DNA of 64,000 bases from Candidatus Sungiibacteriota bacterium (GTDB lineage Bacteria; Patescibacteriota; Minisyncoccia; Sungbacterales; HO2-52-23), in assembly GCA_016180435.1 (NCBI GenBank), contig JACPBG010000001.1, forward strand, positions 8,358 to 72,357. The letters are read 5' to 3'. Numbering within the stretch: position 1 is the stretch's first letter; every line of letters starts with the position of its first letter. Below, piece after piece: positions 7,597 through 23,000 of the stretch. A program made the translations under genes and the position numbers. The notes under the pieces were generated by a model. It had not been told where the DNA came from and did no database searches. It saw nothing but the letters and a program-made list of their open reading frames with translations.

Positions 7597-7614
7597 ATAA
7601 TATATTAACAGCAG

Positions 7615-8625
7615 ATGACTAAATACGACTTCATTGGAATTGGGGATACGGCGGTGGATGCATTTATACGCCTGAAAGAGGCGTCGGTGCATTGCACTTT
7701 GGATCACGAAAAATGCGAGATTTGCCTTAAATTCGCGGATAAGATTCCGTATGAAGATGTTTATAGGATTCCGGCAGTGGGCAATGCGGCCAATGCCTCG
7801 GTCAGTGCCGCGCGTTTGGGACTTAAATCCGCCTTTGTTTCAAATGTGGGAGGGGATTATTACGGCGGCGAGTGCAAACGCGTGCTTGAGCAGGAAGGCG
7901 TGGCATCCGAGTTTGTTCGGGAACATGCCGGACAAAAGACCAATTATCACTATGTCTTATGGTACGAAGATGACCGGACGATTTTGATTAAGCACGAGGA
8001 ATATAAATATAAATTACCCGATATTGGAGAGCCAAAATGGGTTTACCTTTCTTCCACGGCAGAAAATTCTTTGGAATTTCACGGCGAGATTGAAAAATAT
8101 TTAAATTTGCATCAAAGCATCAAATTGGCTTTCCAGCCCGGCACTTATCAGATGCGTTTCGGAAAAGAAAAATTGGCGGAATTTTATCGCAGAGCCGAAG
8201 TGTTTTTTTGCAACAAAGAAGAATCCCAAAGGATTCTAAAAACCACGGAGGATGATATAAAAAAATTATTAAAAGCGATGGCGGATCTGGGACCGAAGAT
8301 CGTGGTTATAACCGACGGGAAAAAGGGAGCGTATGCATATGATGGTTTGACTTCGCTCACCACAGGTGGAGAATTTTGGTTTATGCCGCCCTATCCGGAT
8401 CCAAAGCCGCCTTTGGAACGTACCGGAGCCGGAGATGCGTTTTCATCCACTTTTACTGCGGCTTTGGCGTTGGACTTGGATGTTCCGACTGCCCTTCGCT
8501 GGGGTCCTATAAATTCAATGTCGGTGGTACAATATGTTGGGGCGCGAGAGGGACTTTTGACGCGTGAGAAATTGGAGGAATATTTGAAAAATGCGCCGAA
8601 AGATTATGTGCCGAGGAAAATATAG
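7615..8625 (+). CDS. PfkB-family carbohydrate kinase (ribokinase-like)
   Basis: N-terminal GxGD..VD motif, GNAANASVSAARLG, C-terminal anion-hole motif GAGDAF. Confidence 0.8.
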   Translation: MTKYDFIGIGDTAVDAFIRLKEASVHCTLDHEKCEICLKFADKIPYEDVYRIPAVGNAANASVSAARLGLKSAFVSNVGGDYYGGECKRVLEQEGVASEFVREHAGQKTNYHYVLWYEDDRTILIKHEEYKYKLPDIGEPKWVYLSSTAENSLEFHGEIEKYLNLHQSIKLAFQPGTYQMRFGKEKLAEFYRRAEVFFCNKEESQRILKTTEDDIKKLLKAMADLGPKIVVITDGKKGAYAYDGLTSLTTGGEFWFMPPYPDPKPPLERTGAGDAFSSTFTAALALDLDVPTALRWGPINSMSVVQYVGAREGLLTREKLEEYLKNAPKDYVPRKI

Positions 8626-8689
8626 TTAAAAATCCGAAGGAAGTCCGACTTCAATAATACCTATTGAAGTCGGACTTCAGAGCATTAAC

Positions 8690-9991
8690 ATGGCAATAGG
8701 AGATATTTTGGCGTATATACAGGCAAACGAAAAGACGTTTTCGCGGGAAACGCTTATTTCGCAATTGCGCAAATCCGGCTATCCGGAAGAAGAAATTCAG
8801 GCGGCGCTGAATTTGAAGTATTCAGCTGCTGATTCGGCTCCGGCGGCATCAATGGTTTCGGCAAAACCCGCGTGGAAAAAAATTCTGGCTTGGATTGGCG
8901 GGTTTTTTGTTGGCGGTATTGTATTCTGGATTCTTAGCACCATATTTGCGGGAGTTATTTTCGGACTTGCATACCGCGGCAATGCATCAATAATGAATTA
9001 TCCTATAGTATTTTTTGTCGCTGCAGCAGTTATTTTTACTGTCGCAATTTTTATTTTTATCCTCATACGCGCGCGTTATCCCCATTTTTCTTACGGTTTA
9101 TTGACCGCCACAATTATTTTTGCCCTGGTTTTTATCGGTAGCGTCATACTTTATTCTATCGTGTTTCAAAGTTTGGATTCAGCGCGGGGAAAAGCCCGCG
9201 ATGCGCGCCGAGTTGCGGATGTCAAACAATTGCAGTTAGCCCTTGAACTTTATTATGATGCCAATGGCGGCTATCCTGAAAATTTAGAATTACTTCAGCC
9301 CAAATTTATACCAACAATTCCTCGCGATCCAACCACCGGAATCGAATATATATATGAAAAGCGTCCAGACGGAAGTTATTATATGGCCGCAACACTTGAA
9401 GATTCTGAAAATTATGCGTTGCGCAATGATTTTAATATTGGAAATCAATTATATGAGGTTTCAGAAAGTCCTGGAGTGGTTTTTGATAAAAAACAGTTAC
9501 AACAAGGTGGCGATTCGGGATATGCTTTAAGTGGCCGTCCCTGGGGTCCGGAGCAGGCAACCGGTGCGCCGAATTCTCCGGCATCTTTGGGAGATCATCC
9601 GACGGCCTGGGCTTCGCTTACCGAGGATAATCAGGATGAATGGCTGCTTTTAACATATGAAAAATCTATTCCGGTTTCAGCTATTTTGGTTTATGAAAGC
9701 TATAATCCGGGCGCCTTGCGGCAAATTGACCAGGTTTCCGGAGAGCGCGTATACACATTGTGGAAAGGCGGGGATCCGGTTCAGGCATTGAAAGACGGAC
9801 GTTATGTCGCGCGCATTAAACTTAAGCAGCCGATCACGTTGAGTCAGATCCGGCTTGAAATAAAGTCCACTGAAATTCGCGGATGGAACGAAATAGACGC
9901 CGTGGGGGTGGAAGAGGCCAATGGGACGATTCATTGGGCTACGCGGGCGGAATCAAGCAGCACATATGCTGAACCAAATCCCGGTGGATAA
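8690..9991 (+). CDS. Polytopic membrane protein with an internal pseudopilin (GspG / type IV pilin)-like globular domain and a C-terminal domain of unknown function
   Basis: Four predicted TM helices, then ARGKARDARRVADVKQLQLALELYYDANGGYPENL...IPRDPTTG resembling the GspG core (..DMYKLDNGRYP...LPKDPWG). Confidence 0.45.
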   Translation: MAIGDILAYIQANEKTFSRETLISQLRKSGYPEEEIQAALNLKYSAADSAPAASMVSAKPAWKKILAWIGGFFVGGIVFWILSTIFAGVIFGLAYRGNASIMNYPIVFFVAAAVIFTVAIFIFILIRARYPHFSYGLLTATIIFALVFIGSVILYSIVFQSLDSARGKARDARRVADVKQLQLALELYYDANGGYPENLELLQPKFIPTIPRDPTTGIEYIYEKRPDGSYYMAATLEDSENYALRNDFNIGNQLYEVSESPGVVFDKKQLQQGGDSGYALSGRPWGPEQATGAPNSPASLGDHPTAWASLTEDNQDEWLLLTYEKSIPVSAILVYESYNPGALRQIDQVSGERVYTLWKGGDPVQALKDGRYVARIKLKQPITLSQIRLEIKSTEIRGWNEIDAVGVEEANGTIHWATRAESSSTYAEPNPGG

Positions 9992-10012
9992 CCGCATTAA
10001 CCCCGTATTTTA

Positions 10013-11974
10013 TTGGATATAAAAATATGTTATGTTGGAATAATCACTAAGATGGATGAGGAATTGCGCCAAAGATTAGAAGCAATTGAGAACCGCCTTT
10101 CGGCATTGGAGACGCGTTTTGATGTTGCGGCTGATCAGATTTCAGGTAAGGATTTTTTACCCCAGCCTCCTTCTTACACTCCTGAAAAACCGGCGCAAAA
10201 TCAATGGTGGCAGGTTCCTTCAGCACAGAGAACTGTATCTGAAAAATTGGGCATAGCGGAAAAAACCGGCGGCAGTGTAGAGTCCTATATCGGCCGATGG
10301 GTGCTTGGTGTAGTCGGGATTGTAGCTGTAATATTCGGAGCAAGTTTTTTGCTCAAATACGCTTTTGATAACAATCTTATAGGTCCGGCCGGGCGCGTGG
10401 CGCTGGGAATTATCGGCGGACTGATTTTTGTGGCGCTCGGCGAATTTTTTCGTCCGCGCCTTGCCAAGTACTCATATATTTTATCGGGCGGCGGCCTGGC
10501 GCTTTTTTACCTTTCAATCTACGGCGCTTTTCATTTTTACGGGCTTATCGGACAAGAAACTGCATTCGGCTTTATGATAGTTGTGACCATATTCGGCGTT
10601 GCGCTTTCCATTTGGGCTGATGCGGTTGAGCTTGCCGGTCTGGCCGCATTCGGCGGATTTCTAACTCCGTTTTTATTATCCGCCAAAGTCCCCAATGATA
10701 TGGCCTTTTTCTCGTACCTTGAGATATTGGCTCTAGGGATTTTTGCCACTGCTTTCTTTAAAAAATGGCATCAACTTACGCTTCTCGGGTTTATCGGCAT
10801 GATGATCAATTTTGCATCCTGGTACGGCGGGTATTATGATTCTTCAAGATTGGTTACGGCCCTTTTTGTTCTTTTTATGTTTTATGCCACTTTTCTTTTG
10901 GCGTCCTTTGCCGGAAATGTCATGTCGCGGCACGTATCCGATCCTGGGGATCTTTTTATCTTTACCATAAATCCGGCCTGGTTTTTCGGGTGGTGTTATT
11001 TTTTATTGCAGCGCGAATCGGATTATGAAAGGTTCCTGGGATTTTTGGCAGCCGGGCTTGGCGCGCTTTATATTTTCTTGGCTTATTTTGCCAATGCCTT
11101 GAATAAGGAGGACCGGCGTTTGCCCATGTTTTTGGGTGCGATTGCCGTAGTGTTTTTGACCATTGCGGTGCCGCTGGAGCTTGATCAAAACGCGATTACC
11201 ATTGCCTGGGCAGTGGAGGCAGCCGTACTTTTTGCGTTGGGCGTTATATTGCAAAATCCCGGCATGCGTATTTTTGGCGTTGGGGTCTTGGTGATCGCTC
11301 TGATACGTCTTTCATCATTTGACAGCGGTGCCGGGGATTTGGTTAATTTTTTGCCTATTTTCAATCGCCGCTTTTTCACTTATTTCATGACCATAGTTGC
11401 TTCGGGTGTAATGGCATATTTTTCGGTTCGAGAAAGAGAAAAATTCTCTTCATTTGAGCGCGGCATATCGCTGTTCCTGGGATCATTGGTTAATCTCCTG
11501 ATTCTTATTATAATCACCATGGAGATTTCCACGTTTTTTGATTCGCAGATAAATGACCTCAATAGGAAAGCGATGCTTGAACTTGAACGGGGAGCGCGCA
11601 GGGCGCCGATCACCCAGCAAACAACCCCGCCGTATTTGCAGGTGCCGTATCAGTATGAGGCTGAACGCCGCATACAGCAAAGCCAGGAATATCAATCATT
11701 GAATAATCAGCGCAATGCCTCTATTTCCGTTTTTTGGACCATATATGCGATTTTGCTTATAAGTTTCGGGGTAATGTACCAGAAGGCGTTTCTGCGCTGG
11801 TGGGCGCTTGGACTTTTCGGATTGACCATAGGGAAAGTATTTTTGTTTGACCTTGCCATATTGCCGACTCCTTATCGCATAATTTCATTTATGGTGCTTG
11901 GCATAATTTTGCTTTTGGCGTCATGGTTTTATTTCAAGCGCCAAAGATCGCTGGAAAATATCGCCGCATCCTAA
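10013..11974 (+). CDS. DUF2339-like integral membrane protein (N-terminal coiled coil followed by about 14 TM helices)
   Basis: N-terminal EELRQRLEAIENRLSALETRFD coiled coil; long string of hydrophobic helices; architecture typical of DUF2339. Confidence 0.45.
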   Translation: MDIKICYVGIITKMDEELRQRLEAIENRLSALETRFDVAADQISGKDFLPQPPSYTPEKPAQNQWWQVPSAQRTVSEKLGIAEKTGGSVESYIGRWVLGVVGIVAVIFGASFLLKYAFDNNLIGPAGRVALGIIGGLIFVALGEFFRPRLAKYSYILSGGGLALFYLSIYGAFHFYGLIGQETAFGFMIVVTIFGVALSIWADAVELAGLAAFGGFLTPFLLSAKVPNDMAFFSYLEILALGIFATAFFKKWHQLTLLGFIGMMINFASWYGGYYDSSRLVTALFVLFMFYATFLLASFAGNVMSRHVSDPGDLFIFTINPAWFFGWCYFLLQRESDYERFLGFLAAGLGALYIFLAYFANALNKEDRRLPMFLGAIAVVFLTIAVPLELDQNAITIAWAVEAAVLFALGVILQNPGMRIFGVGVLVIALIRLSSFDSGAGDLVNFLPIFNRRFFTYFMTIVASGVMAYFSVREREKFSSFERGISLFLGSLVNLLILIIITMEISTFFDSQINDLNRKAMLELERGARRAPITQQTTPPYLQVPYQYEAERRIQQSQEYQSLNNQRNASISVFWTIYAILLISFGVMYQKAFLRWWALGLFGLTIGKVFLFDLAILPTPYRIISFMVLGIILLLASWFYFKRQRSLENIAAS

Positions 11975-11988
11975 AATAGTCAGCATTT

Positions 11989-13272
11989 ATGAAAAACTTT
12001 TTATATATCATTATTCCATTTTTTATCGCGGTCGGATTTTTTTCGGTCAGCTGTCTTACTGTTTATGCTGATTTTGATTTGGCTCGCTGGGAATACCTTG
12101 CGCCGATTGAAGGCGGGCCGGGAGTCGGGTCCGGTTATGTTACGCTTGATATCCCCAGCGGATTATTTTCATACTTAAAATCAGATTTATCCGATCTTCG
12201 CGTGGTTAATGACGACGGAGAGGTGCCGTATGTTGCGGCAGTGGAGCGGGAAACTCAGTCAATTTTAAATATTCCGGCGCGAATGTTCAATCTTTCAACC
12301 GTCCCCGGAGATAACACCAGTTTCATGGTTGATCTTGGCCAGTCCGGACTTTTCCATAATTTTGTCACGGTACGAACATCTTCGGAAAATTTCCGGCGCA
12401 TGGCGGAGGTCGAGGGCAGTGATGACGCAAGTTCCTGGCGCATGCTGAATTCCAAAGGCCAGATATTTGATTATACCGTGCGCGACATCAGTCCGGTAAG
12501 CGTTGAATATCTTTCGGTTCCGTATCCGGAATCAACTTTCAGATATCTTTTGGTTACCATTCGCGACAATGGAGAGTCGCCGCTGAAAATCCACGGAGCG
12601 GAGGTGCGGCGCGAGGTAAAGCTTGAAGCACGGGAAATTTCATATACGCCGTCAATGGAGATTTCGGAAAACGTAAAGGATCGCGCGACCGAAGTGTTGC
12701 TTGATCTTGGAGCGCGGGGCATCCCGCATCGCAAGGCGCAGCTTGAAATTTCCTATGCAAATTTCAGCCGGGCAGTTGCTGTATTTGAAAGTGATGACAA
12801 GAAAGAGTGGCGCTCTTTGGGGCACGCCTATATTTTTTCGATAGATACGCCTAAATTTTATGGGAAACAGCTTGAATTTACATATTCGGAATCAAATAAG
12901 CAATACCTGAAATTTGCCATTTTGAACCGGGATGACAGGCCGTTGAGTGTATCTAAGGTTTTTCTCACCGGAGTTATGCGGCGCATTCTTTTCAGTTTTA
13001 ATCCTTCTAAGAAATATTATTTATATGCCGGAAATTCTAACGCGCGCCGGCCGCAATATGATATAGAAGCGATTTCCCAGTATGTTGATTCGGCGTCTCT
13101 ATTTAAGGTTATCGCCGGAGCTACGGAAAAGAATCTGGACTTTGAGCCGATCAAGCCGCCCTTATCCGAGCGCTCACCCTATGTTTTGCCGGTCACTCTT
13201 GGCTTCGTGGTCTTGGTGCTGGCGGCTTTGCTTCTACGCATATTTTTGAAAGTTAAGGGCAGCGCGACTTAA
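11989..13272 (+). CDS. DUF3999-like secreted protein with a C-terminal TM anchor (the usual neighbour of DUF2339)
   Basis: Signal peptide MKNFLYIIIPFFIAVGFFSVSCLTVYA; C-terminal TM YVLPVTLGFVVLVLAALLL; conserved pairing with the preceding gene. Confidence 0.4.
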   Translation: MKNFLYIIIPFFIAVGFFSVSCLTVYADFDLARWEYLAPIEGGPGVGSGYVTLDIPSGLFSYLKSDLSDLRVVNDDGEVPYVAAVERETQSILNIPARMFNLSTVPGDNTSFMVDLGQSGLFHNFVTVRTSSENFRRMAEVEGSDDASSWRMLNSKGQIFDYTVRDISPVSVEYLSVPYPESTFRYLLVTIRDNGESPLKIHGAEVRREVKLEAREISYTPSMEISENVKDRATEVLLDLGARGIPHRKAQLEISYANFSRAVAVFESDDKKEWRSLGHAYIFSIDTPKFYGKQLEFTYSESNKQYLKFAILNRDDRPLSVSKVFLTGVMRRILFSFNPSKKYYLYAGNSNARRPQYDIEAISQYVDSASLFKVIAGATEKNLDFEPIKPPLSERSPYVLPVTLGFVVLVLAALLLRIFLKVKGSAT

Positions 13273-13277: not shown

Positions 13278-13368
13278 ATCAACGAATAACTAATCTTGTT
13301 ACGAATCAACGAATCATTTCTAAAAAATTCCGATTCGTAAATTCGCACGCGATTCGTTATTCGTTGAT
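13278..13368. repeat. Family E palindromic intergenic element, ACGAATA-rich. Terminal 13-bp inverted repeat ATCAACGAATAAC / GTTATTCGTTGAT
   Basis: Perfect terminal inverted repeat read directly; related copies at 19058-19152 and 60323-60392. Confidence 0.7.
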
Positions 13369-13377
13369 TTTTGCCCA

Positions 13378-14262
13378 ATGAGTTTAAACGAATATCTAAA
13401 GCAAGCTACAGACAACGGATGGGCAATCGGTCATTTTAACGCATCGGAACTTGACCAGATGCGTTCTATTTTGGATGCGTGTAAGGACGCGAGTTCTCCG
13501 GCTATGATCGGTACCTCGGAGGGTGAGAGTAAGCATTTGGGACTTGCGGAAGCAGTTGCTTTGCGTGACGCATTCAGAATTAAATACGGAATTCCTGTTT
13601 TTTTAAACGCCGACCATCATAAAAGCGCGGAAGCGGCCATAAAAGCAATTGATGCCGGATATGATTCGGTCCATATTGATCTTTCTTCGTTTCCCATGGA
13701 GGAAAATATCGCAGGCACCAAGATGGTAGTGGATTATGCACGTCAAAGAGAATCAAGAATCAAGAATCAAGAATCAAGAATTAGCGTGGAGGGCGAGCTC
13801 GGGTATCTTCGCGGAGAATCTAAAATTCATCATGAAAAAATTGAAGTAAAGCCGGAGGACTACACCAAAGTGGATCAGGCCAAAGAATTTGTGGCGCGTA
13901 CCGGAGTGGATCGCTTGGCGATTGTTATCGGAAATATCCACGGCATTGCGCCCTCGCATCCGCATCTGGATGTTCAGCGCGTGCTTGATATAAGGCGCGC
14001 TATTCCCAATAGCGTGGCATTAGTGTTGCATGGCGGATCCGGTATTCCGGATGGCGAAGTGGAGGAAGTAATTGGAGTCGGCATTGCCAATGTACATATA
14101 AATACCGAATTGCGCGTCGCGTACGTGCATGGAATGAAGCGCGGATTTGAGTTATATCCGAATGAGGTTTCGATGTATAAATTGGATCAGGAGGCCATTA
14201 AGGCCATGAAATTGGTGGTAAAAGAGAAATTGAAATTATTTGGAGCGGTGAATAAAATTTAG
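13378..14262 (+). CDS. fba: Fructose-bisphosphate aldolase, class II
   Basis: GHFNASELDQMRSILDA, NADHH, LVLHGGSGIPDGEV: class II ketose-bisphosphate aldolase signatures. Confidence 0.85.
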   Translation: MSLNEYLKQATDNGWAIGHFNASELDQMRSILDACKDASSPAMIGTSEGESKHLGLAEAVALRDAFRIKYGIPVFLNADHHKSAEAAIKAIDAGYDSVHIDLSSFPMEENIAGTKMVVDYARQRESRIKNQESRISVEGELGYLRGESKIHHEKIEVKPEDYTKVDQAKEFVARTGVDRLAIVIGNIHGIAPSHPHLDVQRVLDIRRAIPNSVALVLHGGSGIPDGEVEEVIGVGIANVHINTELRVAYVHGMKRGFELYPNEVSMYKLDQEAIKAMKLVVKEKLKLFGAVNKI

Positions 14263-14395
14263 CTCGGTATTGCTGTTTTGAAACACGACTCGGCCGCTCC
14301 TGCGGCGGCCTCGCTAAGGGTCGAGCAAAGTTTTGCGGCTTTGCCGCAAACCAAGCAACTTTGCTCTCCCATTGTTTCAAAACAGCAATACACTC
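14263..14395. repeat. Family A structured repeat, copy A1. Outer 17-bp inverted repeat ATTGCTGTTTTGAAACA/TGTTTCAAAACAGCAAT, two internal hairpins, core motifs CTAAGGGTCG and CTCCCATTGT
   Basis: Same architecture and core motifs as copies at 17868-18005, 28404-28545, 29893-30090 and 44164-44390. Confidence 0.75.
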
Positions 14396-14410
14396 GCTGA
14401 CGTATTTTTT

Positions 14411-15385
14411 ATGAAGGTATTTGTCACTCGCCAAATTCCAGATAGGGGAATAAATATGTTAAAGAAAAAGGGCCATGAGGCAGTTGTAAGCCCGCATGAT
14501 AGAGTCCTCAAAAAAGAGGAACTGATTGAATATCTGAAAAAAGATAAATATGATGCTGTATTGGCTCTGCTTACGGATAAAATTGATGCGGGCGTCTTGG
14601 ATGCAATGAAAGAAAGCGGAGTAAAAATTATCGCAAATTACGCGGTGGGGTTTGATAATATTGATGTAAAATCAGCCGGGGAGAGGGGAATTGTGGTCAC
14701 CAATACTCCCGGAGTTCTTACTGAAACAGTGGCCGAGCATACGTTTTCTTTGATGTTATCCATTGCGCATCGGATTCCGGAATCGGACAGATTTACCCGC
14801 GCCGGAAAATATCATGGCTGGGAGCCGATGATGCTTTTGGGAACTGACGTATCAAAAAAAACACTTGGCGTGGTGGGACTTGGCCGAATAGGATCAAGAG
14901 TGGCGTACCACGCCGCCAAAGGGTTTGAAATGAAGATACTTTATTATGATCCGAAACGCTCGGAAGAGTTTGAAAAAGAATATGGTGCGCAATATCGCGA
15001 AAATATTGATGATATTTTCCGTGAGTCGGATTTTGTTTCAATACACGTGCCGCTACTTCCGGCAACGCGTCATTTGGTTGATGCCAGGCGGCTCGGGCTT
15101 ATGAAAAAAACCGCGTATCTTATTAATACGTCGCGTGGCCCGATTGTGGATGAGACGGCTCTGGTTGCGGCATTGAAAAACAAAGTGATTCGTGGAGCCG
15201 CGCTGGATGTGTATGAAAATGAGCCAATGCTCTCGCCCGGTTTGGCCGAATGCGAAAACGCGATCTTAACCCCGCATACCGCATCCGCCACCGAAGAAAC
15301 GCGCCAAGCCATGGGAGAATTGGCAGCCAAAAATATCATTGAGGTGTTGGAAGGCCGTACCCCGCCGAACCTTGTAAAAATTTAA
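14411..15385 (+). CDS. D-isomer-specific 2-hydroxyacid dehydrogenase (glyoxylate/hydroxypyruvate reductase or PGDH-like). The start is moved to the second ATG because the first 26 codons of the track ORF overlap repeat A1
   Basis: NAD-binding GVVGLGRIGSRVA; catalytic region LINTSRGPIVDE...ALDVYENEP...LTPH. Confidence 0.8.
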   Translation: MKVFVTRQIPDRGINMLKKKGHEAVVSPHDRVLKKEELIEYLKKDKYDAVLALLTDKIDAGVLDAMKESGVKIIANYAVGFDNIDVKSAGERGIVVTNTPGVLTETVAEHTFSLMLSIAHRIPESDRFTRAGKYHGWEPMMLLGTDVSKKTLGVVGLGRIGSRVAYHAAKGFEMKILYYDPKRSEEFEKEYGAQYRENIDDIFRESDFVSIHVPLLPATRHLVDARRLGLMKKTAYLINTSRGPIVDETALVAALKNKVIRGAALDVYENEPMLSPGLAECENAILTPHTASATEETRQAMGELAAKNIIEVLEGRTPPNLVKI

Positions 15386-15429
15386 GGACTCTGATATGAT
15401 CCTCTTAGTTCTTACAAGAGGATTCAAAA

Positions 15430-15720
15430 ATGGAAAATCTGCTTTGGGCGTTTTTAGCTCTTCAGTGGTGGGAGTATGTGGTGCTTTTTATCATCATCTA
15501 TCTTCTTTTGGGGTTGTACGGAATGTCTATGTATTTTCGTAATGACCATACTTGTTGGGGAAATTTTTGGAAGGTTTCTTCAATTTGGTGGGTGCTACTG
15601 ATAGTTAATTTAAGCCAAGAAGTAATTCCATATTATCTGAAATGTAGAAAAGAGCATGTGAAAAAACGCGTGAAAGCCAAGATAAAAAAATACGGACTAT
15701 CCGAGTTAAAGACAGATTAA
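15430..15720 (+). CDS. Small hypothetical membrane protein
   Basis: Two hydrophobic helices; followed by an intrinsic terminator. Confidence 0.35.
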   Translation: MENLLWAFLALQWWEYVVLFIIIYLLLGLYGMSMYFRNDHTCWGNFWKVSSIWWVLLIVNLSQEVIPYYLKCRKEHVKKRVKAKIKKYGLSELKTD

Positions 15721-15722
15721 GC

Positions 15723-15753
15723 AGGGACGGCATTACCGTCCTCTTTTATTTTT
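15723..15753 (+). terminator. Rho-independent terminator (AGGGACGG-CATTA-CCGTCCT followed by a T-run)
   Basis: GC-rich 8-bp stem followed by CTTTTATTTTT. Confidence 0.7.
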
Positions 15754-15779
15754 CTAAAGGGCGTGCTATCATAGCATTT

Positions 15780-16484
15780 ATGCAGGAATTAAAGGCAAGT
15801 TCACGAACAGAATTAGGCAGGCGGGTAAAGCCCTTACGAAAGGATGGTTTTTTACCGGGCGTGGTGTATGGCGAGGGAGTGGCTTCCCGGCCGGTTTCGG
15901 TTCCTTATAAGGATTTTGATAAAGTATATAGGGAAGCCGGAGAATCAACCATTATTGAGTTGGATGTGGATGGAAAGCAATATAATGTGCTTATTCAGGA
16001 TATTGCGCGCGATCCTATGCGCGGGGATATGCTCCATGCGGATTTTTATGCCGTACGGATGGATAAGGTGATTCGCACTAAAGTCCGGGTGGCTTTTGTG
16101 GGTGAGTCGCCGGCAGTTAAAAACGACGGTGGGGTCTTGGTAAAAGTTATGCAGGAAATTGAGGTAGAGGCCTTGCCCAAAGACCTTACGCGCGAAATTC
16201 GGGTGGATGTATCAAAGCTTGTGGTTCTTGAATCAAGAATCACGGTAAAAGATATTGTTTTACCGCAAGGTGTAAAAGCGCTTGCCGCGCCGGATGATGT
16301 TTTGGTTCTAGTTGAGAAGCCGAGGGCCGAGGAGGAACTTGCGGCATTGAAACAAGCGCCGCTTGCGGAGCCGGTGGCGGAAGTTAAGACCGAGCAGGAG
16401 GCCAAACGCGAGGCCAAAGAAAAAGATAAAGACGAGGCAACGGAGGAAAAGGGAACTGGTAAGGAAGCGGGAGCCAAGGTATAA
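15780..16484 (+). CDS. rplY: 50S ribosomal protein L25 / general stress protein Ctc
   Basis: RVKPLRKDGFLPGVVYG...DFYAV: L25/Ctc family with an acidic C-terminal tail. Confidence 0.85.
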   Translation: MQELKASSRTELGRRVKPLRKDGFLPGVVYGEGVASRPVSVPYKDFDKVYREAGESTIIELDVDGKQYNVLIQDIARDPMRGDMLHADFYAVRMDKVIRTKVRVAFVGESPAVKNDGGVLVKVMQEIEVEALPKDLTREIRVDVSKLVVLESRITVKDIVLPQGVKALAAPDDVLVLVEKPRAEEELAALKQAPLAEPVAEVKTEQEAKREAKEKDKDEATEEKGTGKEAGAKV

Positions 16485-16492
16485 TAGCAAGT

Positions 16493-17851
16493 ATGCAATT
16501 CAAATCAAATAAGGCTATCTGGAAAACCTCATATTTATTGAGGATTTTTATCTTTGTACTTTGTTACGGACTTTTTTTTGTTCAGCCCGTTTTTGCTCAA
16601 GAATCGGCGCAGAAAAAGGCCGAATTAGAACGGCAGATCGGACAACTTGAGAAAGAGGCCGATGCTCTAGACAATCAGTTGCAGTCGGTACTTGTTGAAA
16701 AACGGTCGTTGGATAGCGAAAAAAAGACCCTGGATACGGAAATAAAGCGCCGGGAACTGGAAATAAGGCGTCTTACGCTTGTTTTGAAAAAAACCGCGTC
16801 CGAAATTCAGGAAAAAACTTCGGGCATCGGCGTGCTTACCCAAAAAATCGCAAAATCCCGCAGTGCGATTGCCGCCGGACTTTTTTCGCTATATACCTAT
16901 GACCACCATAATCCGTTTATCATGATTTTGGGATACGGGAAGATTTCAGATTTTTTCAGTTCGATAGAGGGTTTGACCAGAGTACAGGCGCGTATTCAGG
17001 CAACGCTTTATGATTTTAAAAAAGATCGCGAGTTATTGGCCAAGGAAAAGGAGGAACTCGAGGGATTCAAGGCCGAACAGCAGGGATTGCATTCTTTGCA
17101 GGAGGTTGAGCGCAGGTTTCTTGCGCAGAAGAAACAGGAGAAAGAGGAATTATTGAGATTAACCAAGGGTAAGGAAGCGATTTTCCAGCAGCTTTTGACA
17201 TCCAAAAAACGGGATCTGACAACGCTTAAAACACAGCTGTTTTATCTGGAAAAAACCGGAGTTACGGCCGAAGATGCGATACGTTTTGCCGAACTTGCGG
17301 CTAATCGCTCCGGCATAAGGCCTGCGTTTCTGCTGGCATTGCTTGAGGTGGAAACCGGAAAGCAATTTGAAGACGGAGTTATATCGGTTGGAACAAATCT
17401 CGGGACCGGAAATTGGAAAAGAGACCTTTATGACTGTTACCGAAGCATCGGGAAAAAGTCCGCGGCCGAATCCGAAAAAACCGCATTTTTTAAGATTGCG
17501 GGGGCCCTGAACCTGGATCCTGATAAAATGCCGGTTTCACGGCGTCCGTCATATGGTTGCGGAGGCGCCATGGGTCCGGCGCAATTTTTGCCGACAACCT
17601 GGCTGCGTTTTTCAAATAAAGTTGCAGAGCTCACCGGACATAATCCTCCTAATCCATGGAATGTTGAGGACGCATTTACCGCAGCTGCGGTTTTTCTGGC
17701 GGATGCAGGCGCCAAATCGCAAACCGTTGCCGGAGAATCGCGTGCCGCGCGAACCTATATATCCGGAAGCCCGTCCTGCAAGCGATATATCTGTAATACA
17801 TACGCCAACAGAATTGCGGCCCTCGCCCGCGATATAGATAGGATTTTGTGA
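16493..17851 (+). CDS. Coiled-coil protein with a C-terminal lytic murein transglycosylase (MltB-like) domain
   Basis: N-terminal TM segment, about 200 aa of coiled coil, then GCGGAMGPAQFLPTTW (MltB signature GAMGxxQFMPST). Confidence 0.6.
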   Translation: MQFKSNKAIWKTSYLLRIFIFVLCYGLFFVQPVFAQESAQKKAELERQIGQLEKEADALDNQLQSVLVEKRSLDSEKKTLDTEIKRRELEIRRLTLVLKKTASEIQEKTSGIGVLTQKIAKSRSAIAAGLFSLYTYDHHNPFIMILGYGKISDFFSSIEGLTRVQARIQATLYDFKKDRELLAKEKEELEGFKAEQQGLHSLQEVERRFLAQKKQEKEELLRLTKGKEAIFQQLLTSKKRDLTTLKTQLFYLEKTGVTAEDAIRFAELAANRSGIRPAFLLALLEVETGKQFEDGVISVGTNLGTGNWKRDLYDCYRSIGKKSAAESEKTAFFKIAGALNLDPDKMPVSRRPSYGCGGAMGPAQFLPTTWLRFSNKVAELTGHNPPNPWNVEDAFTAAAVFLADAGAKSQTVAGESRAARTYISGSPSCKRYICNTYANRIAALARDIDRIL

Positions 17852-17867
17852 TTGTGTGCGGTTTTCT

Positions 17868-18005
17868 CGGCAATTCCAATTTCAGACACGATGCGATTGC
17901 TCCAGCGGCAATCGCGCTAAGGGTCGGTCCGGTTTTCCGCTTTCAGCGGAACCCAGCAAACCGGACCTCCCATTGTCTGAAATTGAAATAGCCTCGACCG
18001 CGCAC
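17868..18005. repeat. Family A structured repeat, copy A2
   Basis: CAATTTCAGAC...GTCTGAAATTG outer inverted repeat; GCTAAGGGTCGG; CCTCCCATTGTCTGAAAT; two internal hairpins. Confidence 0.75.
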
Positions 18006-18023
18006 AATTATTTTAGGAGGGAT

Positions 18024-19046
18024 TTAAGTGTTAAATGCTTCAATGATATCGTCCACATTTCCCTCCAGTATTGATTCCAGATTATGCCATGATTTTTTGA
18101 TACGGTGATCGGTAACGCGGTCCTGGGGAAAATTATAAGTTCGAATTTTTTCCGAACGATCGGCCGTTCCTATCTGCTCGCGGCGTTTTTCGCCGATTTT
18201 TTTGGCTTCGGCCGCGTGTTTGTCTTCATACAATTTTGTGCGTAGAATATCCATGGCATGCTCCCGATTTTTTTGCTGGGAGCGGGATTCCTGCGAGGTT
18301 ATGACAAGGCCAGTCGGGAGGTGCGTCATGCGTACTGCGGTTTCGACTTTATTCACGTTTTGTCCTCCGGGTCCGGATGAGCGGAAAAATTCAACTTTTA
18401 CATCCTGTGGTTTTATTTCTATATCAATTTCACGGGCTTTGGGGAGTACCGCAACGGATGCGGTTGAGGTATGGATGCGGCCTGTTTTTTCGGTCTCCGG
18501 AATGCGTTGCACCCGGTGTACACCCGATTCGAATTGCAGGTAGGCATATGCGTTTTCGCCGTTTATTTCAAATATTATCTCTTTGAATCCGCCCAGGTCG
18601 CTTCGGGATTCATCCAGTGTCAAGATATTCCAGCCGCGTTTTTTGGCAAATTGGGCATACATGTGAAAAAGTTTTCCGGCAAAAAGTGAAGCCTCCTGGC
18701 CTCCGGCTCCGGCTCTGATCTCCATTATGACATCTTGCGGCAAATTTTCGGCGCCTGCGGCTGTTTTTTTCTCGAGCATCTTAAGTTCGCTTTTCAGCGA
18801 AATAAGTTCTTCTTCGGCAAGTTTTGCTATTTCCCCGTCCTTTTCCGGAGCAAGCATTTCTTCGGCCTCCTTAATTCTCTTCTGCAATTCTGATATTCGC
18901 GAAAGTTCAAAGATCCGTTTTTCAATTTTTGAAAATTCAATCGAGAGTTCTTTCACTTTTTGGGGGTCGCGGAGAATTTCGGGGTCGCCGAGTTTTTGCT
19001 GAAGCTCCTCTTTTTGCTGTTGTAGTTTTTGAAATTCAATTTCCAT
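18024..19046 (-). CDS. prfA: Peptide chain release factor 1 (class I release factor; RF1-like on motif content)
   Basis: GGQ motif SSGPGGQNVNK; RIPETEKTGRIHTS in the PxT (RF1) position rather than SPF; RTYNFPQDRVTDHRI matches RF1. Confidence 0.75.
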   Translation of the reverse strand: MEIEFQKLQQQKEELQQKLGDPEILRDPQKVKELSIEFSKIEKRIFELSRISELQKRIKEAEEMLAPEKDGEIAKLAEEELISLKSELKMLEKKTAAGAENLPQDVIMEIRAGAGGQEASLFAGKLFHMYAQFAKKRGWNILTLDESRSDLGGFKEIIFEINGENAYAYLQFESGVHRVQRIPETEKTGRIHTSTASVAVLPKAREIDIEIKPQDVKVEFFRSSGPGGQNVNKVETAVRMTHLPTGLVITSQESRSQQKNREHAMDILRTKLYEDKHAAEAKKIGEKRREQIGTADRSEKIRTYNFPQDRVTDHRIKKSWHNLESILEGNVDDIIEAFNT

Positions 19047-19057
19047 GTATAAATAAA

Positions 19058-19152
19058 ATCAACGAATATCGAATTTCGTACGAATATACGAATGGTTCGA
19101 CGTTGCTCACCATGAATTCGTATATTCGCGTTTGATTCGTTATTCGCTGATG
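19058..19152. repeat. Family E palindromic element (ACGAATA-rich), copy E2
   Basis: AATCAACGAATATCGAAT...ATTCGTATATTCG...GATTCGTTATTCGCTGATG, a long imperfect palindrome. Confidence 0.65.
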
Positions 19153-19359
19153 TTAATGTTTCTTTTTGGCCAATCTTTGTTTGAATTTCTCCACGCGGCC
19201 CGCGGTATCCACGAGTTTAGATCCCCCCGTATAAAAAGGGTGGCATTTTGAACATATTTCAATCTCCAGCTTTTCCTTGGCGGAACCCACCTGGAATTTG
19301 TGGCCGCAGGAACAATCAATTTTGGCCTGGTGATATTGAGGATGAATATCTTTTTTCAT
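19153..19359 (-). CDS. rpmE: 50S ribosomal protein L31
   Basis: MKKDIHPQY...CSCG...[10 protein letters not shown] zinc-ribbon L31. Confidence 0.9.
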
Positions 19360-19424
19360 ATGCGAATCTTATCATGCATTTAAACCCCTTGCAAGCGGTT
19401 TGAGGTTTTGTTATACTGTGCGGT

Positions 19425-20174
19425 ATGGCTGAATTATCAACAAATACGGCGGCACCTGATTTATCTTTTGAGCCGGCGGATGATGAAATAAAGGGTATGC
19501 TCAAAGCCGGAGTACATTGGGGACACGCCAAATCCAAAAATCACTCGGCTATGCAGCCGTATATTTTTGGAGTGCGCAATACCATCTCGGTTATTGATCT
19601 AACCAAGACCAAAGAAAAACTTGCCGCGGCCTTGGCATTTTTAAAAGGAGTTTCGCAGAAAAGCGGTTTAATCCTTTTGGTGGGTACGCGCCCGGCTGCG
19701 CGGAGGGTTTTGCTTGAATTAAAAGATCGGTTCGGCATGCCGTATTATGCCGAGCGCTGGATTGGAGGAACGCTTACGAATTTTAAAGAAATCTCAAAGC
19801 GCCTCTCCCAAATGGAAACCATGGAAAAAGAAAAGGCCTCGGGTGAGTGGGGAAAATATACCAAGAAAGAGCAGATGGAAAAAGGCAAGGATCTGGAAAA
19901 ATTGCAGAGAATGTTTGACGGAGTGCGGACTCTGAAACGGCTGCCGGATGCGCTGTTTATCGTGGATATAAATGAGGACATAACTGCGCTTCGCGAAGCC
20001 AAACGGCTGAAAATCCCGGTGGTTGCGTTATGTGATACTAATTCAGATATTGATTCGGTGACATATCCTATTCCTTCCAATGATGATGCTCTGCCCGCGG
20101 TGCGGTATATGTTAGGAAGGGTGGCGGAGGCGATGGGGGAAGGAATAAAGATGAGGGAGGTGAAAAGTGAATAG
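19425..20174 (+). CDS. rpsB: 30S ribosomal protein S2
   Basis: LKAGVHWGH, LLVGTRPAA, ERWIGGTLTNF. Confidence 0.9.
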   Translation: MAELSTNTAAPDLSFEPADDEIKGMLKAGVHWGHAKSKNHSAMQPYIFGVRNTISVIDLTKTKEKLAAALAFLKGVSQKSGLILLVGTRPAARRVLLELKDRFGMPYYAERWIGGTLTNFKEISKRLSQMETMEKEKASGEWGKYTKKEQMEKGKDLEKLQRMFDGVRTLKRLPDALFIVDINEDITALREAKRLKIPVVALCDTNSDIDSVTYPIPSNDDALPAVRYMLGRVAEAMGEGIKMREVKSE

Positions 20175-20308
20175 ATGCTCGCCATATCATATTTGGGTAT
20201 GATATGAATAGTTATTTTTGATTGTGGCAGAAGGATAATAATCGGACAGCGCTTAAGATGTGAATTGTATAATTTCTGTGTTAGAATTAATATAAAAGTA
20301 GCTTTATT

Positions 20309-20545
20309 ATGAGACATTCTTACACATTTAAAACTATTATACGTAGAGGACAGGATGGATACTGGATTGCTTCTGTCCCGGCTTTGCCTGGCTGTCATAC
20401 CCAAGCCAAGACCTATGAAGAATTGAGAAAAAGGATTAAAGAGGCGATTGGACTTTGTTTAGAAGCGGCAAAAGAAGATCATAGTTACCGTCTGACCTCT
20501 CAACCCGTTTTCATAGGGATGGAGGATGTGGCGGTTAGGGTATGA
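20309..20545 (+). CDS. hicB: HicB-family antitoxin
   Basis: GYWIASVPALPGCHTQAKTYEELRKRIKEAIGLCLE, the HicB N-terminal fold motif. Confidence 0.7.
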   Translation: MRHSYTFKTIIRRGQDGYWIASVPALPGCHTQAKTYEELRKRIKEAIGLCLEAAKEDHSYRLTSQPVFIGMEDVAVRV

Positions 20546-20769
20546 GTCGTCTCCCAATTCTTAGAGCGCGTGAAGTTATCCGAGCGCTGGAACGCGCCGG
20601 ATTTGTTAGTATAAGACAGAAAGGCAGTCATATTTTCCTTAGAAATCCTGTAACAAAACGCACTACAGTGGTGCCTATTCATGAACGAGAAGATATAGAT
20701 CGTGATTTTCTTGCTGAAATATTAACTGACGCTGGCATCGGTCAAGAAGAATTCCGCAAACTTATTTGA
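20542..20769 (+). CDS. hicA: HicA-family mRNA interferase toxin
   Basis: EVIRALERAGFVSIRQKGSHIFLRNP...VVPIH; 4-bp overlap with hicB. Confidence 0.7.
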   Translation: MSRLPILRAREVIRALERAGFVSIRQKGSHIFLRNPVTKRTTVVPIHEREDIDRDFLAEILTDAGIGQEEFRKLI

Positions 20770-20796
20770 AATAAGTATTAATAATTTATAGAAGTT

Positions 20797-21381
20797 ATGG
20801 TAACAGCCCAACAAATCAAGGAATTGCGTGAGAAGACCGGAGCGGGGATTTCGGATGTAAAAAAAGCTCTGGAAGATAGCGGAGGAGATATGGTAAAGGC
20901 CGAAGGCGCACTGGTGCGAAAACTCGGAGGATCGGCGTCCAAGCGCGCCGGACGCACCACCGGAGCAGGAATTGTGGACGTGTACCTTCATTCCAACGAA
21001 AAGATGGGGGTCATGATTGAGCTTTTTTGCGAAACCGATTTTGTGGCGCGAAATCCTGCGTTTAGGGAACTTGCGCATGATTTGGCTATGCAGGTTGCGG
21101 CCATGCGTCCGATTTATTTATCGTTTGATGCGGTGCCTCGGGATGTATGGGATTTGGAAAAGTCGCAGGTTGCGGATGAGGTAAAAAAAATGGGAAAACC
21201 CGCGCAGGTTGCGGAACAGATTATCGACGGGAAATTAAAGGCATTTTTTGGGGCAATTTCATTGCTGGAACAGCCGTTTGTTAAAGATCAGGATAAAACC
21301 ATTAAAGAGCTGATAAATGAGGCGATAGGGAAGTTCGGAGAGAATATTAAAGTGGGGAAATTCGTGAGATTTGAGATTTAA
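20797..21381 (+). CDS. tsf: Elongation factor Ts (short form)
   Basis: ITAQQIKELREKTGAGISDVKKALE (UBA-like N-terminus); GAGIVDVYLHSNEKMGVMIEL. Confidence 0.85.
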   Translation: MVTAQQIKELREKTGAGISDVKKALEDSGGDMVKAEGALVRKLGGSASKRAGRTTGAGIVDVYLHSNEKMGVMIELFCETDFVARNPAFRELAHDLAMQVAAMRPIYLSFDAVPRDVWDLEKSQVADEVKKMGKPAQVAEQIIDGKLKAFFGAISLLEQPFVKDQDKTIKELINEAIGKFGENIKVGKFVRFEI

Positions 21382-21695
21382 TGGGATTTGTTTATTCGGT
21401 AATATGCGTTTCGCTCAAGAGTTTCAGCGCAGAAAAATGGAGCCGAAAATACGGCGGGAATCCCACCGCGTTCTCCGCTCTCACACCCCGTTTATTAGAA
21501 GAAAGTCATCCTGAGAGAAGCGAAGGATCTCGTCGTTTGTTGGCGGAGCCGCGGTTTCCCTCACCGTATTTTCTCACCATTTTTTATCTGCGCTTCCACA
21601 ATTTCGCGAAATCGCATATTACCTTGCAAATTAGTTTTTGTATTAGAGAATCTAACGAATTTGTAGGGATGGCGAGGTTTGTATAAGGTAGCGCG

Positions 21696-22184
21696 TTGCG
21701 CTTTCATAAAATTATGATATTAAATCTGGCTTTAGGAATAATATTTTTGGGAAGTACTGCCGCGCTTTGGTATCTTGTTTCTAAAAGAATTCCTGTGCTT
21801 GTGGCGATCCCGGACGATGTAATTGCTAAACGCCTTGAGGAGGACTCGGCGCGGATTCGCGTGTTTCTCCTGCGTCTAAAATCGTTTTATACTGAAGGGC
21901 GAATTAAGGATTTTTTTTGGGGCATTGTCGCAAAGATTTTGCACCGCTCGCATATTATTTTGATGCGCGTTGATAATAGGACGGTTTCTCTCCTTAAGCG
22001 CGTTCGCGGAAATGGCGGAAGTCAAGGCGCGTCTAATGGCATTACAGTAGGGGAGGATGAATTGCAAAAATCATCCGTATCGGCGGTTGCTTCATTGCCG
22101 GATCCCATGTCGCATAAATCTCTTAAAATTGAGGAGGTACGTCCTCGCAAAAATGATGCTCGAGAAGAAGTACGACTTGTATGA
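21696..22184 (+). CDS. Hypothetical protein with an N-terminal TM helix
   Basis: ORF only; no recognisable motif. Confidence 0.3.
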   Translation: MRFHKIMILNLALGIIFLGSTAALWYLVSKRIPVLVAIPDDVIAKRLEEDSARIRVFLLRLKSFYTEGRIKDFFWGIVAKILHRSHIILMRVDNRTVSLLKRVRGNGGSQGASNGITVGEDELQKSSVSAVASLPDPMSHKSLKIEEVRPRKNDAREEVRLV

Positions 22185-22201
22185 TATAATTGATGATGGA
22201 C

Positions 22202-22379
22202 GCCGCCTTAGCTTAGTGGTAAAGCAGTGGTTTCTTGCCCTCCCACTTTTTATGCCAGAGTAGCTCAGTGGTAGAGCAGCGGTTTTGTAAACCGTTGGTC
22301 AGGGGTTCAAATCCTCTCTCTGGCTAAAAGTGGGAGGGTGAATAAACCACGTACGCAGGTTCGATTCCGGCAGGCGGCT
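22202..22379 (+). tRNA. tRNA-Lys(CUU) gene interrupted in the anticodon loop by a nested tRNA-Thr plus a 13-bp inverted repeat, about 107 nt in total. 5' half about 22202-22237, 3' half about 22344-22379
   Basis: Acceptor GCCGCCT/AGGCGGC (7/7); U8A9; D-arm GCTT-AGTGGTA-AAGC; anticodon stem GTGGT/ACCAC with loop TTCTT|..|AA; T-arm GCAGG-TTCGATT-CCGGC (one A.G mismatch); folded by hand. Confidence 0.6.
22254..22325 (+). tRNA. tRNA-Thr(UGU), intact, lying inside the tRNA-Lys anticodon loop
   Basis: Acceptor GCCAGAG/CTCTGGC; D-arm GCTC-AGTGGTA-GAGC; anticodon arm GCGGT-TTTGTAA-ACCGT; T-arm AGGGG-TTCAAAT-CCTCT; 72 nt. Confidence 0.8.
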
Positions 22380-22415
22380 CTTGACGCAAAGTTAATCTAA
22401 GGATAAGCTTAGAGC

Positions 22416-22634
22416 ATGAGCAATATCATCGGATTAAAAGAGCTTCGGGAAAATGTTGAGAATTACGTCTCCGAAATAAAGCGGGGAAAGTCATTTATTG
22501 TATTAAGGCGCTCCTTGCCCGTCTTTAAAATTTCTCCTCCGGATGAGGATGCGGAACTCTGGGAACAGGTGGCTGATTTTACTAAAATAAAGAAGGGCGG
22601 GGTTGAGATCAAAAATTTGCTTTCTCGTCTTTAA
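22416..22634 (+). CDS. Phd/YefM-family antitoxin
   Basis: IIGLKELRENVENYVSEIKRGKSFIVLRRSLPVFKI: Phd/YefM N-terminal pattern. Confidence 0.6.
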   Translation: MSNIIGLKELRENVENYVSEIKRGKSFIVLRRSLPVFKISPPDEDAELWEQVADFTKIKKGGVEIKNLLSRL

Positions 22635-22639
22635 ACTTT

Positions 22640-22882
22640 GTGGACAAAATTGAAAAGGCGCTTCAAAAGTTTAGCGCCTGGGAGCGCGTAGTGGTTAAGC
22701 AGTTGCTGGAAAAGTTACAATCAGGATCTATCGCAAGCCTTAATATCAAGAAACTCAAGGGGAGAGAGGATATTTTTCGCGTTCGCAAAGGCGATATCCG
22801 CATAATATACCGTCTGGATAAAAAGATGGGCATATTCGTTTTAGCAATTGAACGGCGCAAAGAAAATACTTATAAATTATAG
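22640..22882 (+). CDS. RelE/ParE-family toxin (GTG start overlapping the antitoxin stop)
   Basis: GDIRIIYRLDKKMGIFVLAIERRKENTY, the RelE/ParE C-terminal signature. Confidence 0.6.
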   Translation: MDKIEKALQKFSAWERVVVKQLLEKLQSGSIASLNIKKLKGREDIFRVRKGDIRIIYRLDKKMGIFVLAIERRKENTYKL

Positions 22883-22901
22883 GAGATAGATAATGACTAT
22901 A

Positions 22902-22985
22902 GGGTGTGTCGCATAGCGGCAATTGCTCGTGGCTGTAAACCACGCGTCCTAACGGACTACGGAGGTTCGAGTCCTCCCGCACCCA
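22902..22985 (+). tRNA. tRNA-Tyr(GUA), long variable arm
   Basis: Acceptor GGGTGTG/CGCACCC; anticodon arm CGTGG-CTGTAAA-CCACG; variable stem GTCC-TAAC-GGAC; T-arm GGAGG-TTCGAGT-CCTCC. Confidence 0.8.
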
Positions 22986-23000
22986 AAAATTAAATTATTT

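Follow-up and report, generated by a model that had tools for sequence, protein, structure and literature searches.

REPs (repetitive extragenic palindromes) are palindromes of 20–40 nt with an unpaired GTAG or CGTC tag; two such units in inverted orientation make up a REPIN (REP doublet forming hairpin), and they are mobilised by RAYT, a Y1 transposase. ERIC/IRU, Correia (NEMIS), RUP and BOX elements are imperfect palindromes of 100–200 bp in transcribed intergenic regions, with variants arising by internal insertion, presence or absence among relatives and possible effects on mRNA ends. In these families the terminal inverted repeats (TIRs) are conserved, and Correia elements come with a TA duplication. 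REPs lie downstream of open reading frames (ORFs), between unidirectional and convergent genes, and the list of phyla with tagged REPs does not include Patescibacteria (PMC3733652). Here we describe family A, a branched palindromic element found in a 64-kb stretch of contig JACPBG010000001.1 from a Candidatus Sungiibacteriota bacterium (the whole stretch of DNA analysed, hereafter the window) and in other Patescibacteria genomes. In our view, family A is probably a hitherto undescribed family of palindromic repeats in Patescibacteria, structured and non-autonomous, with a lifestyle like that of miniature inverted-repeat transposable elements (MITEs), REPINs and ERICs. Its fold is kept by Watson–Crick compensatory change, its copy number differs greatly between related genomes, and units are gained or lost whole at the 3' ends of genes.

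The window, whose genes are Patescibacteria housekeeping genes, holds five full copies of family A (A1–A5), all on the + strand, and two truncated copies (Table 1). A covariance model was built from 36 copies (the three short window copies and 33 from other genomes) and, with filters off, recovered exactly A1–A5 from the 64 kb (E 9e-38 to 7e-12), the next match being an ordinary hairpin (E 0.02). As single strands, the window copies fold with z scores of -7.1 to -10.4 relative to dinucleotide shuffles. The original prediction, read from the letters of the window, had listed these same five copies on the + strand, each right after a stop codon, and two partial copies near 28560-28748 and at 56745-56790. 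All seven are real, and the five full copies begin 0–9 nt past a stop codon, the upstream + strand genes being fba, an SLT-domain gene, nrdA, nrdB and a DUF2585 gene. A2 extends beyond the limits first given, as the inserted unit includes a further outer tier of the stem. The 3' part of the first partial copy (28655-28719) is 91% identical to L019:1693-1757 (L numbers denote genome or metagenome loci from other assemblies, of which L041–L044 are Logan contigs). The second is a 5' fragment, truncated precisely where it meets the stop codon of a - strand gene (56784-57413), and it runs antisense to its flanking genes.

Family A units are 135–220 nt long, and a long outer stem (P1) closes a three-way junction with a hairpin (P2) and an arm (P3–P4–P5). 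P1 has 15–22 bp, with ACACG(A) immediately inside it; in the long forms (A2, L003, L011 and L017) it is prolonged outward by one or two tiers, each delimited by CUCG on both strands. The base of P2 in A1 is a C-G / U.C / C.U / G-C motif, and (C/U)UCG...CUC(G/A) is found at this position in ~45 of 50 copies. P3 pairs UAAGGG with CCC-(A)-UUG, the A being bulged, and is followed by a small UC/U loop and then by P4. The one-sided bulge in P4/P5 reads AACCAAGCAA in 20 of the 50 copies, and close variants of it occur. The motifs ACACG, the P2 loop YCCNGCG, the bulge ACCAAGCA and the repeated CUCG/CUCG 2 x 2 loops, one of which also lies inside P4 of one subfamily, are unpaired and constant across copies. 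Two conserved cores had been taken for single strands, which is only partly right: CUAAGGG and CCCAUUG largely form helix P3, which covaries in divergent copies.

Length variants arise by extensions of 60–80 nt, of P5 in A4 and A5 and of P2 in L102 and L035. A4 has a perfect outer arm of 22 bp (TCAGTAATTTTAATTTCAGACA), and its P5 is lengthened by ~76 nt and terminates in a family-D hairpin, CCCGAG-TTTAT-CGAGGG (29983-30000). In A5, the outer palindrome AAAAACTCGGTG...CACCGAGTTTTT is terminator-like on both strands and P5 is lengthened by ~78 nt. The hairpin that caps both extensions has the form CC-CGAG-N5-CGAG-GG and shows compensatory change between the two copies (CCCGAG..CGAGGG versus TTTGAG..CGAAAAG), which bears out the earlier suggestion that A4 and A5 carry an extra module related to family D.

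Pairing is preserved where stem sequences differ, as had been noticed among the window copies and as now holds on 50 further copies. In the 36-copy alignment, RNAalifold found compensatory change at 34 of 41 pairs. In the 50-copy alignment, 92.1% of cells are paired, versus 62.1% in shuffles, both-sided changes occur at 39 of the 41 pairs, and the covariation score is 0.70, versus 0.18 when shuffled and <=0.12 when the partners are slid. All 15 model pairs of P1 vary, 14 of them with double changes, and double changes are seen in 17 of 17 pairs of P4 and P5. P3 covaries in divergent copies that had not been picked via the search pattern (UCAGAC/GUC-A-UGG, CACGGG/CCC-A-GUG, UGA/UCA). Mutual information recovered all helices, together with one pair at the P2 base (CG:25, UA:20) and two pairs beyond the outer CUCG. 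A pseudoknot between the P2 loop and the P4/P5 bulge was considered and rejected: no Watson–Crick covariation lies outside the nested helices, and columns 47–208 show a weak association only.

An exact-pattern scan of 185,579 species genomes yielded 40 loci, 37 of which are true copies from 15 metagenome-assembled genomes (MAGs), all of Patescibacteria/Parcubacteria type; the other three are chance matches in other phyla. The covariance model, applied to those loci, returned many further copies (50, of which 13 are divergent) with massive covariation. The MAG GW2011_GWA2_45_30 (LCKU01) alone has at least 23 copies. By contrast, just five covariance-model matches were found in the 499 kb of 80 metagenome loci chosen for homologues of the gene upstream of A2 (40–85% identity, good synteny). 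No copy was found in IMG/VR viral contigs, PLSDB plasmids or GenBank phages. Family A is confined to Patescibacteria (also called the candidate phyla radiation, CPR), as far as sampled. Among short-read contigs of the window species (L041–L044, 1.2 kb), the ends lie either side of nrdB, at family A copies, and A2 and A5 are present in all Logan contigs of that species (fixed).

A2 is absent from the closest relative (L045/L046, 85%), in which 16 nt separate SLT from the convergent prfA. The empty site in L045 reads TGA-ttataggaggaggatt-stop (gtgA|TTATaggagg), and in the window the same flanking bases enclose the whole two-tier palindrome TTGTGTGCGG...CCGCGCACAA. The A2 unit is therefore 157 bp, with a terminal repeat of at most 3 bp. 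This one resolved empty site would allow a target duplication of 0–3 bp (AT/ATT), and L049 shows none. The pair CTCG...CTCG was considered as a target-site duplication and dropped: both CTCG lie inside the unit that the empty site lacks, and the motif recurs at the P2 base, where the flanking pair covaries, and inside P4 of a subfamily.

Other orthologous sites display a similar variety. The fba|ghrB spacer holds a copy in the window (A1), an orthologous one in L045 (4038-4194) and one in the distant L102; in ~14 other syntenic loci it measures 5–60 nt and is empty or contains unrelated palindromes. The SLT|prfA spacer of L085 holds a divergent copy in the opposite orientation. Between rpsB and tsf, there is a full copy in L049 (9079-9230), a decayed copy in L045 (~9430-9540) that the model missed and, in the window, a perfect hairpin together with a hicB/hicA toxin-antitoxin pair (Table 1). 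These three spacers were filled by independent events. Another orthologous site has a sense copy in L003 and, in L016, one that belongs to a different subfamily and points the other way, and a copy directly after nrdA is also found in another genome (L001:7881-8000). Presence or absence at orthologous sites and variable copy number among relatives, the marks of mobile repeats, are thus both seen in family A.

In relatives without family A, the fba|ghrB spacer contains other, unrelated palindromic insertions (L058:150-200, L092:3940-4030, L081:450-640). It thus seems that different hairpin elements have landed repeatedly in the short gene spacers of Patescibacteria.

Crude ORF calls over 50 copies show that 41 share a strand with their upstream gene, that tandem-gene spacers hold 24 sense versus 5 antisense copies, and that convergent spacers hold 13 copies versus 3 in divergent ones. 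Orientations are mixed within single contigs, so the bias tracks transcription, not replication; a replication-strand bias in the style of IS200/IS605 was rejected on the same ground, the GC skew merely mirroring gene direction. A riboswitch or leader of the downstream gene was ruled out, as A2 and A4 lie between convergent genes. The proximity to stop codons is put down to the tiny size of the original spacers and to the downstream gene, whose start region has to be left intact.

The same counts suit a different reading, in which family A is a cis-acting 3' untranslated-region RNA of the upstream gene (a terminator, a 3' exonuclease block, an RNase III/E target or a protein-binding site), kept because the RNA folded from the sense strand is of use to the host. 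This reading is compatible with a mobile origin, and we regard it as possible although rather unlikely. Copies begin 0–20 nt past stop codons, orthologous copies follow fba and nrdA in different genomes, and functional RNAs are usually marked by conserved unpaired motifs combined with stems that covary. Also in its favour, the canonical terminators of the window are not enriched (32 versus 25.6 +/- 5 expected), and T runs come after some copies (A5, L028 and L085). None follows A3 or A4, though, many copies have no U tract, and the terminator scan does not call family A elements. However, most relatives have spacers of 5–16 nt without the element at the same sites, and in the type IV pilus operon of LCKU01000009 (pilM, pilO-like and pilB; L002:2751-6694) three antisense copies lie between successive cistrons, a fourth, sense copy following pilB. 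A role as a cis-acting mRNA 3' structure is nevertheless plausible for the transcribed copies and may explain the orientation bias.

The pair types argue further against selection on the sense-strand RNA. Among 2,050 cells there are 1,805 Watson–Crick pairs, 27 G-U, 47 A-C and 73 U-C/C-U; G-U thus makes up 1.3% of pairs and is rarer than A-C. Most of the U-C/C-U cells probably belong to the conserved CUCG/CUCG loops (C-G, U.C, C.U, G-C). The most similar copy pairs differ chiefly by double changes, with G-U intermediates rare. The sense strand is also the less stable fold: the reverse complement is lower in folding energy in 44 of 54 copies (means of -69.4 versus -65.0 kcal/mol; Wilcoxon p = 5.5e-7). 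When flanked as pyrimidine-GA-purine, tandem G-A is a stable motif of both DNA and RNA. The CUCG/CUCG loops read CGAG/CGAG, that is, tandem G-A, on the complementary strand, and the greater stability of the complement is in line with this reading. Neither frequent G-U pairs nor a sense strand at least as stable as its complement, both expected of a sense-strand RNA, was thus found. Covariation of this type is unlike that left by selection on a sense-strand RNA and fits selection for pairing either of the two strands alike or of the complement. Correction of one arm of a quasi-palindrome from the other, in the course of replication, would suit near-pure Watson–Crick covariation as well. Such near-pure covariation is a caution for RNA-motif discovery, as strong covariation alone is no proof that RNA is the selected molecule.

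We also weighed whether it is the complementary strand that is read, family A being either a multi-copy gene whose structured RNA acts in trans or a site of folded single-stranded DNA; on that strand the fold is the better one and G-U (47) exceeds A-C (27). P1, P2 and a variant of P4 all contain the tandem G-A motif CGAG/CGAG, and in that orientation a TATAAG-like hexamer was seen by eye just upstream of the short-form LCKU01 copies. Against this, the G-U excess is only 1.7-fold, no promoter or terminator is conserved across copies, in the family-D hairpin it is the other strand of the element that carries the G-A motif, and patchiness and decay speak against an essential RNA. We hold this explanation to be very unlikely.

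Searches for known families returned nothing that accounts for the elements. At the gathering threshold, Rfam 15 reported only two tRNAs in the whole window, and at E <= 10 it gave no match on A1 or A2 on either strand of region 14200-18100. No self-cleaving ribozyme core (hammerhead, twister, pistol, hatchet or HDV-like) was found by Rfam or by eye. Likenesses to parS, attC and the anti-Shine-Dalgarno sequence, noticed by eye, were dropped, the relevant bases being unconserved or wrongly arranged. Literature searches on CPR repeats, MITEs and structured RNAs turned up no published description of family A.

No mobilising enzyme was found either. Scans of 40 window ORFs with NCBIfam or Pfam (~13.4–59.3 kb; ORFs at 44-13272, several within 15430-24538 and those beyond 59.8 kb fell outside the scan) revealed no transposase, reverse transcriptase or recombinase, and none was seen among the tested L002 and L019 ORFs adjoining copies, where Pfam identified the copy-flanked ORFs as pilus genes. 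Clustering of 305 ORFs around copies gave only shared housekeeping genes and no recurring partner, and tblastn with Escherichia coli RayT against all collected loci (0.9 Mb) detected no homologue (best E 0.3). Nor did the ~0.9 Mb sample or the 40 scanned ORFs reveal a full-length parent that shares these ends and encodes a transposase.

The original prediction had offered a functional structured RNA or a MITE-like mobile element. Mobility has gained direct support from the empty site, the patchiness, the independent fillings and the truncated and decayed copies, whereas a sense-strand RNA is disfavoured by the rare G-U pairs, the stabler complement and the antisense copies within an operon. 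Nor is family A a classical MITE: its outer arms have a column entropy of 1.4–1.9 bits rather than conserved TIRs, no fixed target duplication was seen, and no parent transposon was found in the sample searched.

In our preferred reading, that of a non-autonomous mobile repeat, the fold would be maintained because the element itself propagates by way of a single strand that must be folded, most likely the one complementary to that described here, on which the CUCG/CUCG loops would form tandem G-A. An enzyme encoded elsewhere in the genome would recognise the constant motifs, and correction from arm to arm would account for the missing wobble pairs. Copies would persist only where a compact genome tolerates them, right after stop codons, and the tolerated orientation would mostly put the weaker fold into mRNA, where copies probably also serve as 3' hairpins. 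The constancy of the loops implies specific recognition of the three-way junction by some factor. It is conceivable, although we think it unlikely, that the junction with its YCCNGCG, ACCAAGCA, ACACG and tandem G-A/CUCG motifs is the recognition structure of an undescribed, Patescibacteria-specific mobility or RNA-protein system; such a system may act on folded single-stranded DNA as the substrate of a new transposase or nuclease, or may use a multi-copy RNA to recruit a CPR-specific factor to many mRNAs.

Several observations weigh against a mobile repeat. Neither a mobilising gene nor an autonomous element with the same ends was found in the loci searched, and the terminal arms lack sequence conservation, unlike TIRs bound by a transposase. 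Near-identical copy pairs are absent, so there is no sign of a recent burst, and the Logan contigs display no strain-level polymorphism of A2 or A5 within the window species. The single empty site at high resolution (A2/L045) is compatible with insertion or with precise deletion. Orientation follows the neighbouring gene (24 sense versus 5 antisense), which points to some selection at the level of the transcript. Finally, the A1 and L045 orthologues kept their pairing through several double substitutions, for which a function at the host level could equally be responsible.

Patescibacteria genomes are among the smallest and most compact of bacteria, with spacers of 5–16 nt at the sites examined. 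Despite this, some lineages hold dozens of family A copies of 135–220 bp, and those of the window take up ~0.9 kb of the 64 kb. The repeats fragment short-read assemblies, contigs breaking at copies, and provide a ready marker of lineage and strain history. They are also candidates for supplying terminators or mRNA 3' structures to organisms about whose regulation of genes almost nothing is known, and they point to an enzyme or factor that would read the conserved three-way junction. Should the junction indeed be a recognition structure, family A would be more than a passive hairpin repeat.

Table 1 Coordinates of family A copies, of the helices of A1 and of neighbouring features in the window
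Feature	Position	Strand	Details
A1, short form	14263-14396	+	155 bits, E 9e-38 (covariance model); fba stop TAG 14260-14262 upstream, 2-hydroxyacid dehydrogenase gene ATG 14411 downstream
A1, CTCG marking the ends	14263-14266, 14393-14396		
A1, P1 5' arm	14267-14285	+	pairs with 14373-14391, 19 bp
A1, hairpin P2	14289-14313	+	CUCG-GCCGC-UCCUGCG-GCGGC-CUCG; loop YCCNGCG
A1, helix P3 5' strand UAAGGG	14315-14320	+	pairs with CCC(A)UUG at 14368-14374; core 1 of the original prediction
A1, stem P4	14323-14332 with 14357-14366	+	encloses P5 hairpin 14333-14349
A1, one-sided bulge ACCAAGCA	14350-14357	+	in P4/P5
A2, two-tier long form	17852-18008	+	outer tier TTGTGTGCGGTT...GACCGCGCACAA; between convergent SLT-domain gene (stop TGA 17849-17851) and prfA (stop at 18024)
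A2, inner CTCG	17866-17869, 17993-17996		
A3, short form	28405-28541	+	137 bits; 4 nt past nrdA stop (28398-28400)
5'-truncated copy	28588-28719	+	family-D hairpin and 3' half of long-P5 copy (...GAGTACTCGGACCATGCC...CCTCCTGATTGT...CCTCGGCCGCATCGCTCGCTTAAA)
A4, long variant	29879-30084	+	72.5 bits, local, 76-nt insert; 9 nt past nrdB stop
A5, long variant	44162-44380	+	54.8 bits; 4 nt past DUF2585 gene stop
5' fragment of long-form copy, 47 nt	56737-56783	+	CGCTCGCTTATGCGGTATTCGGGCATTGTAATTTCAGACACGATTCG
rpsB-tsf spacer	20175-20797		perfect hairpin (CCATATCATA...TATGATATG) and hicB/hicA toxin-antitoxin pair
hicB/hicA	20309-20545, 20542-20769		Pfam HicB_lk_antitox 1.2e-6, HicA_toxin 1.1e-18
GTAG-tagged hairpins	28561-28578, 28733-28748, 30121-30139, 31877-31905, 44410-44420		
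99-nt repeat	31834-31932, 58428-58526		89% identical; shorter relatives 36828-36865, 59712-59749
39-nt direct repeat	13333-13371, 19116-19154, 60357-60395		72–82% identity
Two very large ORFs	44-7596		941 and 1609 aa

A second small repeat in the window is a REP-like hairpin with an unpaired GTAG tag, usually found after TTTTCTTAWT (for example, TTGTAGCCGC-TTGG-GCGGCT). Such hairpins are also seen 10–25 nt 3' of many copies in L005, L006, L008, L009, L018, L019 and L040; the GTAG hairpin often follows a family A copy, giving mosaics like the bacterial interspersed mosaic elements (BIMEs). The 99-nt repeat lies upstream of genes and consists of a family-D-type hairpin (GTT-CGAG-CGAAGT-CGAG-AAC) and a GTAG-tagged hairpin with CGAG in its loop. 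The hairpin motif CGAG...CGAG (tandem G-A) is common to this repeat, family A and family D. A 140-nt intergenic stretch that includes a family-D-like hairpin (59669-59807) is 86% identical to L040:2675-2813 of the MAG GW2011_GWA2_45_30, with which the window otherwise has no nucleotide-level similarity outside repeats; it is another shared repeat family.

Two further features of the window stand apart from these hairpins. Copies 1 and 3 of the 39-nt direct repeat (ATTCGTAAATTCGCACGCGATTCGTTATTCGTTGATTTT) lie just upstream of + strand gene starts (13378 and 60395), and copy 2 lies in the spacer of the divergent genes prfA and rpsB, whose starts are ~70 nt (prfA, 19046) and ~270 nt (rpsB, 19425) away; the repeat could be a promoter or leader motif. 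The two very large ORFs at the beginning of the window have internal 2-kb repeats and long Thr/Pro-rich tracts (ACNCCN repeats), probably encode cell-surface proteins and account for the negative GC skew of the first 8 kb.

Set against known systems, family A differs from the families of Rfam 15 by the near absence of wobble pairs, the level of covariation and the conserved loops being alike. It also differs from an intrinsic terminator, a G+C-rich hairpin with a U tract right behind it, in that a T run is present in some copies only. That it is a known recombination or replication site (an integron attC, a palindrome-associated transposable element (PATE) derived from IS200/IS605 or a site like a single-strand origin) is, in our view, highly unlikely: a folded, strand-asymmetric palindrome directly after ORFs, the lack of an obvious target duplication and the ORF-element-ORF-element arrays of L002 recall such sites, but A1–A5 have no GTTRRRY/RYYYAAC core sites, the flanking genes are housekeeping or operon genes (fba, nrdA, nrdB, prfA and pil genes) and not cassettes, P2 and P5 are mutually unrelated, unlike the end hairpins of IS200/IS605, single contigs hold copies in both orientations, the search of 0.9 Mb of loci detected no Y1 transposase, and plasmids and phages yielded no copy. 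With the IS200/IS605 PATEs, family A shares the absence of clear TIR-type conservation, an apparent relevance of one-strand folding and mismatches in the stems that mark the strand. It lacks, however, their similar subterminal hairpins and a conserved 4–5-nt target on its left, where the bases are those of stop codons without a common motif; its orientation is independent of replication direction, and no TnpA or TnpB was found nearby.

Family A is extragenic, multi-copy and hairpin-forming and has the same placement 3' of ORFs as REP, REPIN and BIME elements (PMC3733652). It likewise forms mosaics with other small hairpins, GTAG-tagged hairpins lying 10–25 nt downstream of many copies, its pairing is long maintained, and no target duplication is obvious. 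Compared with REPs, it is 4–6 times longer, is built around an asymmetric three-way junction and not from a pair of inverted REPs, and carries no GTAG/CGTC tag at its foot, and no RAYT was found in the 0.9 Mb of loci. With ERIC, Correia, RUP and BOX elements, family A shares size, location, length variants, patchy presence and possible effects on mRNA ends, whereas its arm sequences vary freely, with pairing alone conserved, and its core is branched with constant loops. In its distribution, family A is thus closest to REP/REPIN/BIME and ERIC/Correia-type elements, and it is set apart from them by a branched, asymmetric conserved core, free arm sequence, no obvious target duplication and no known partner enzyme.

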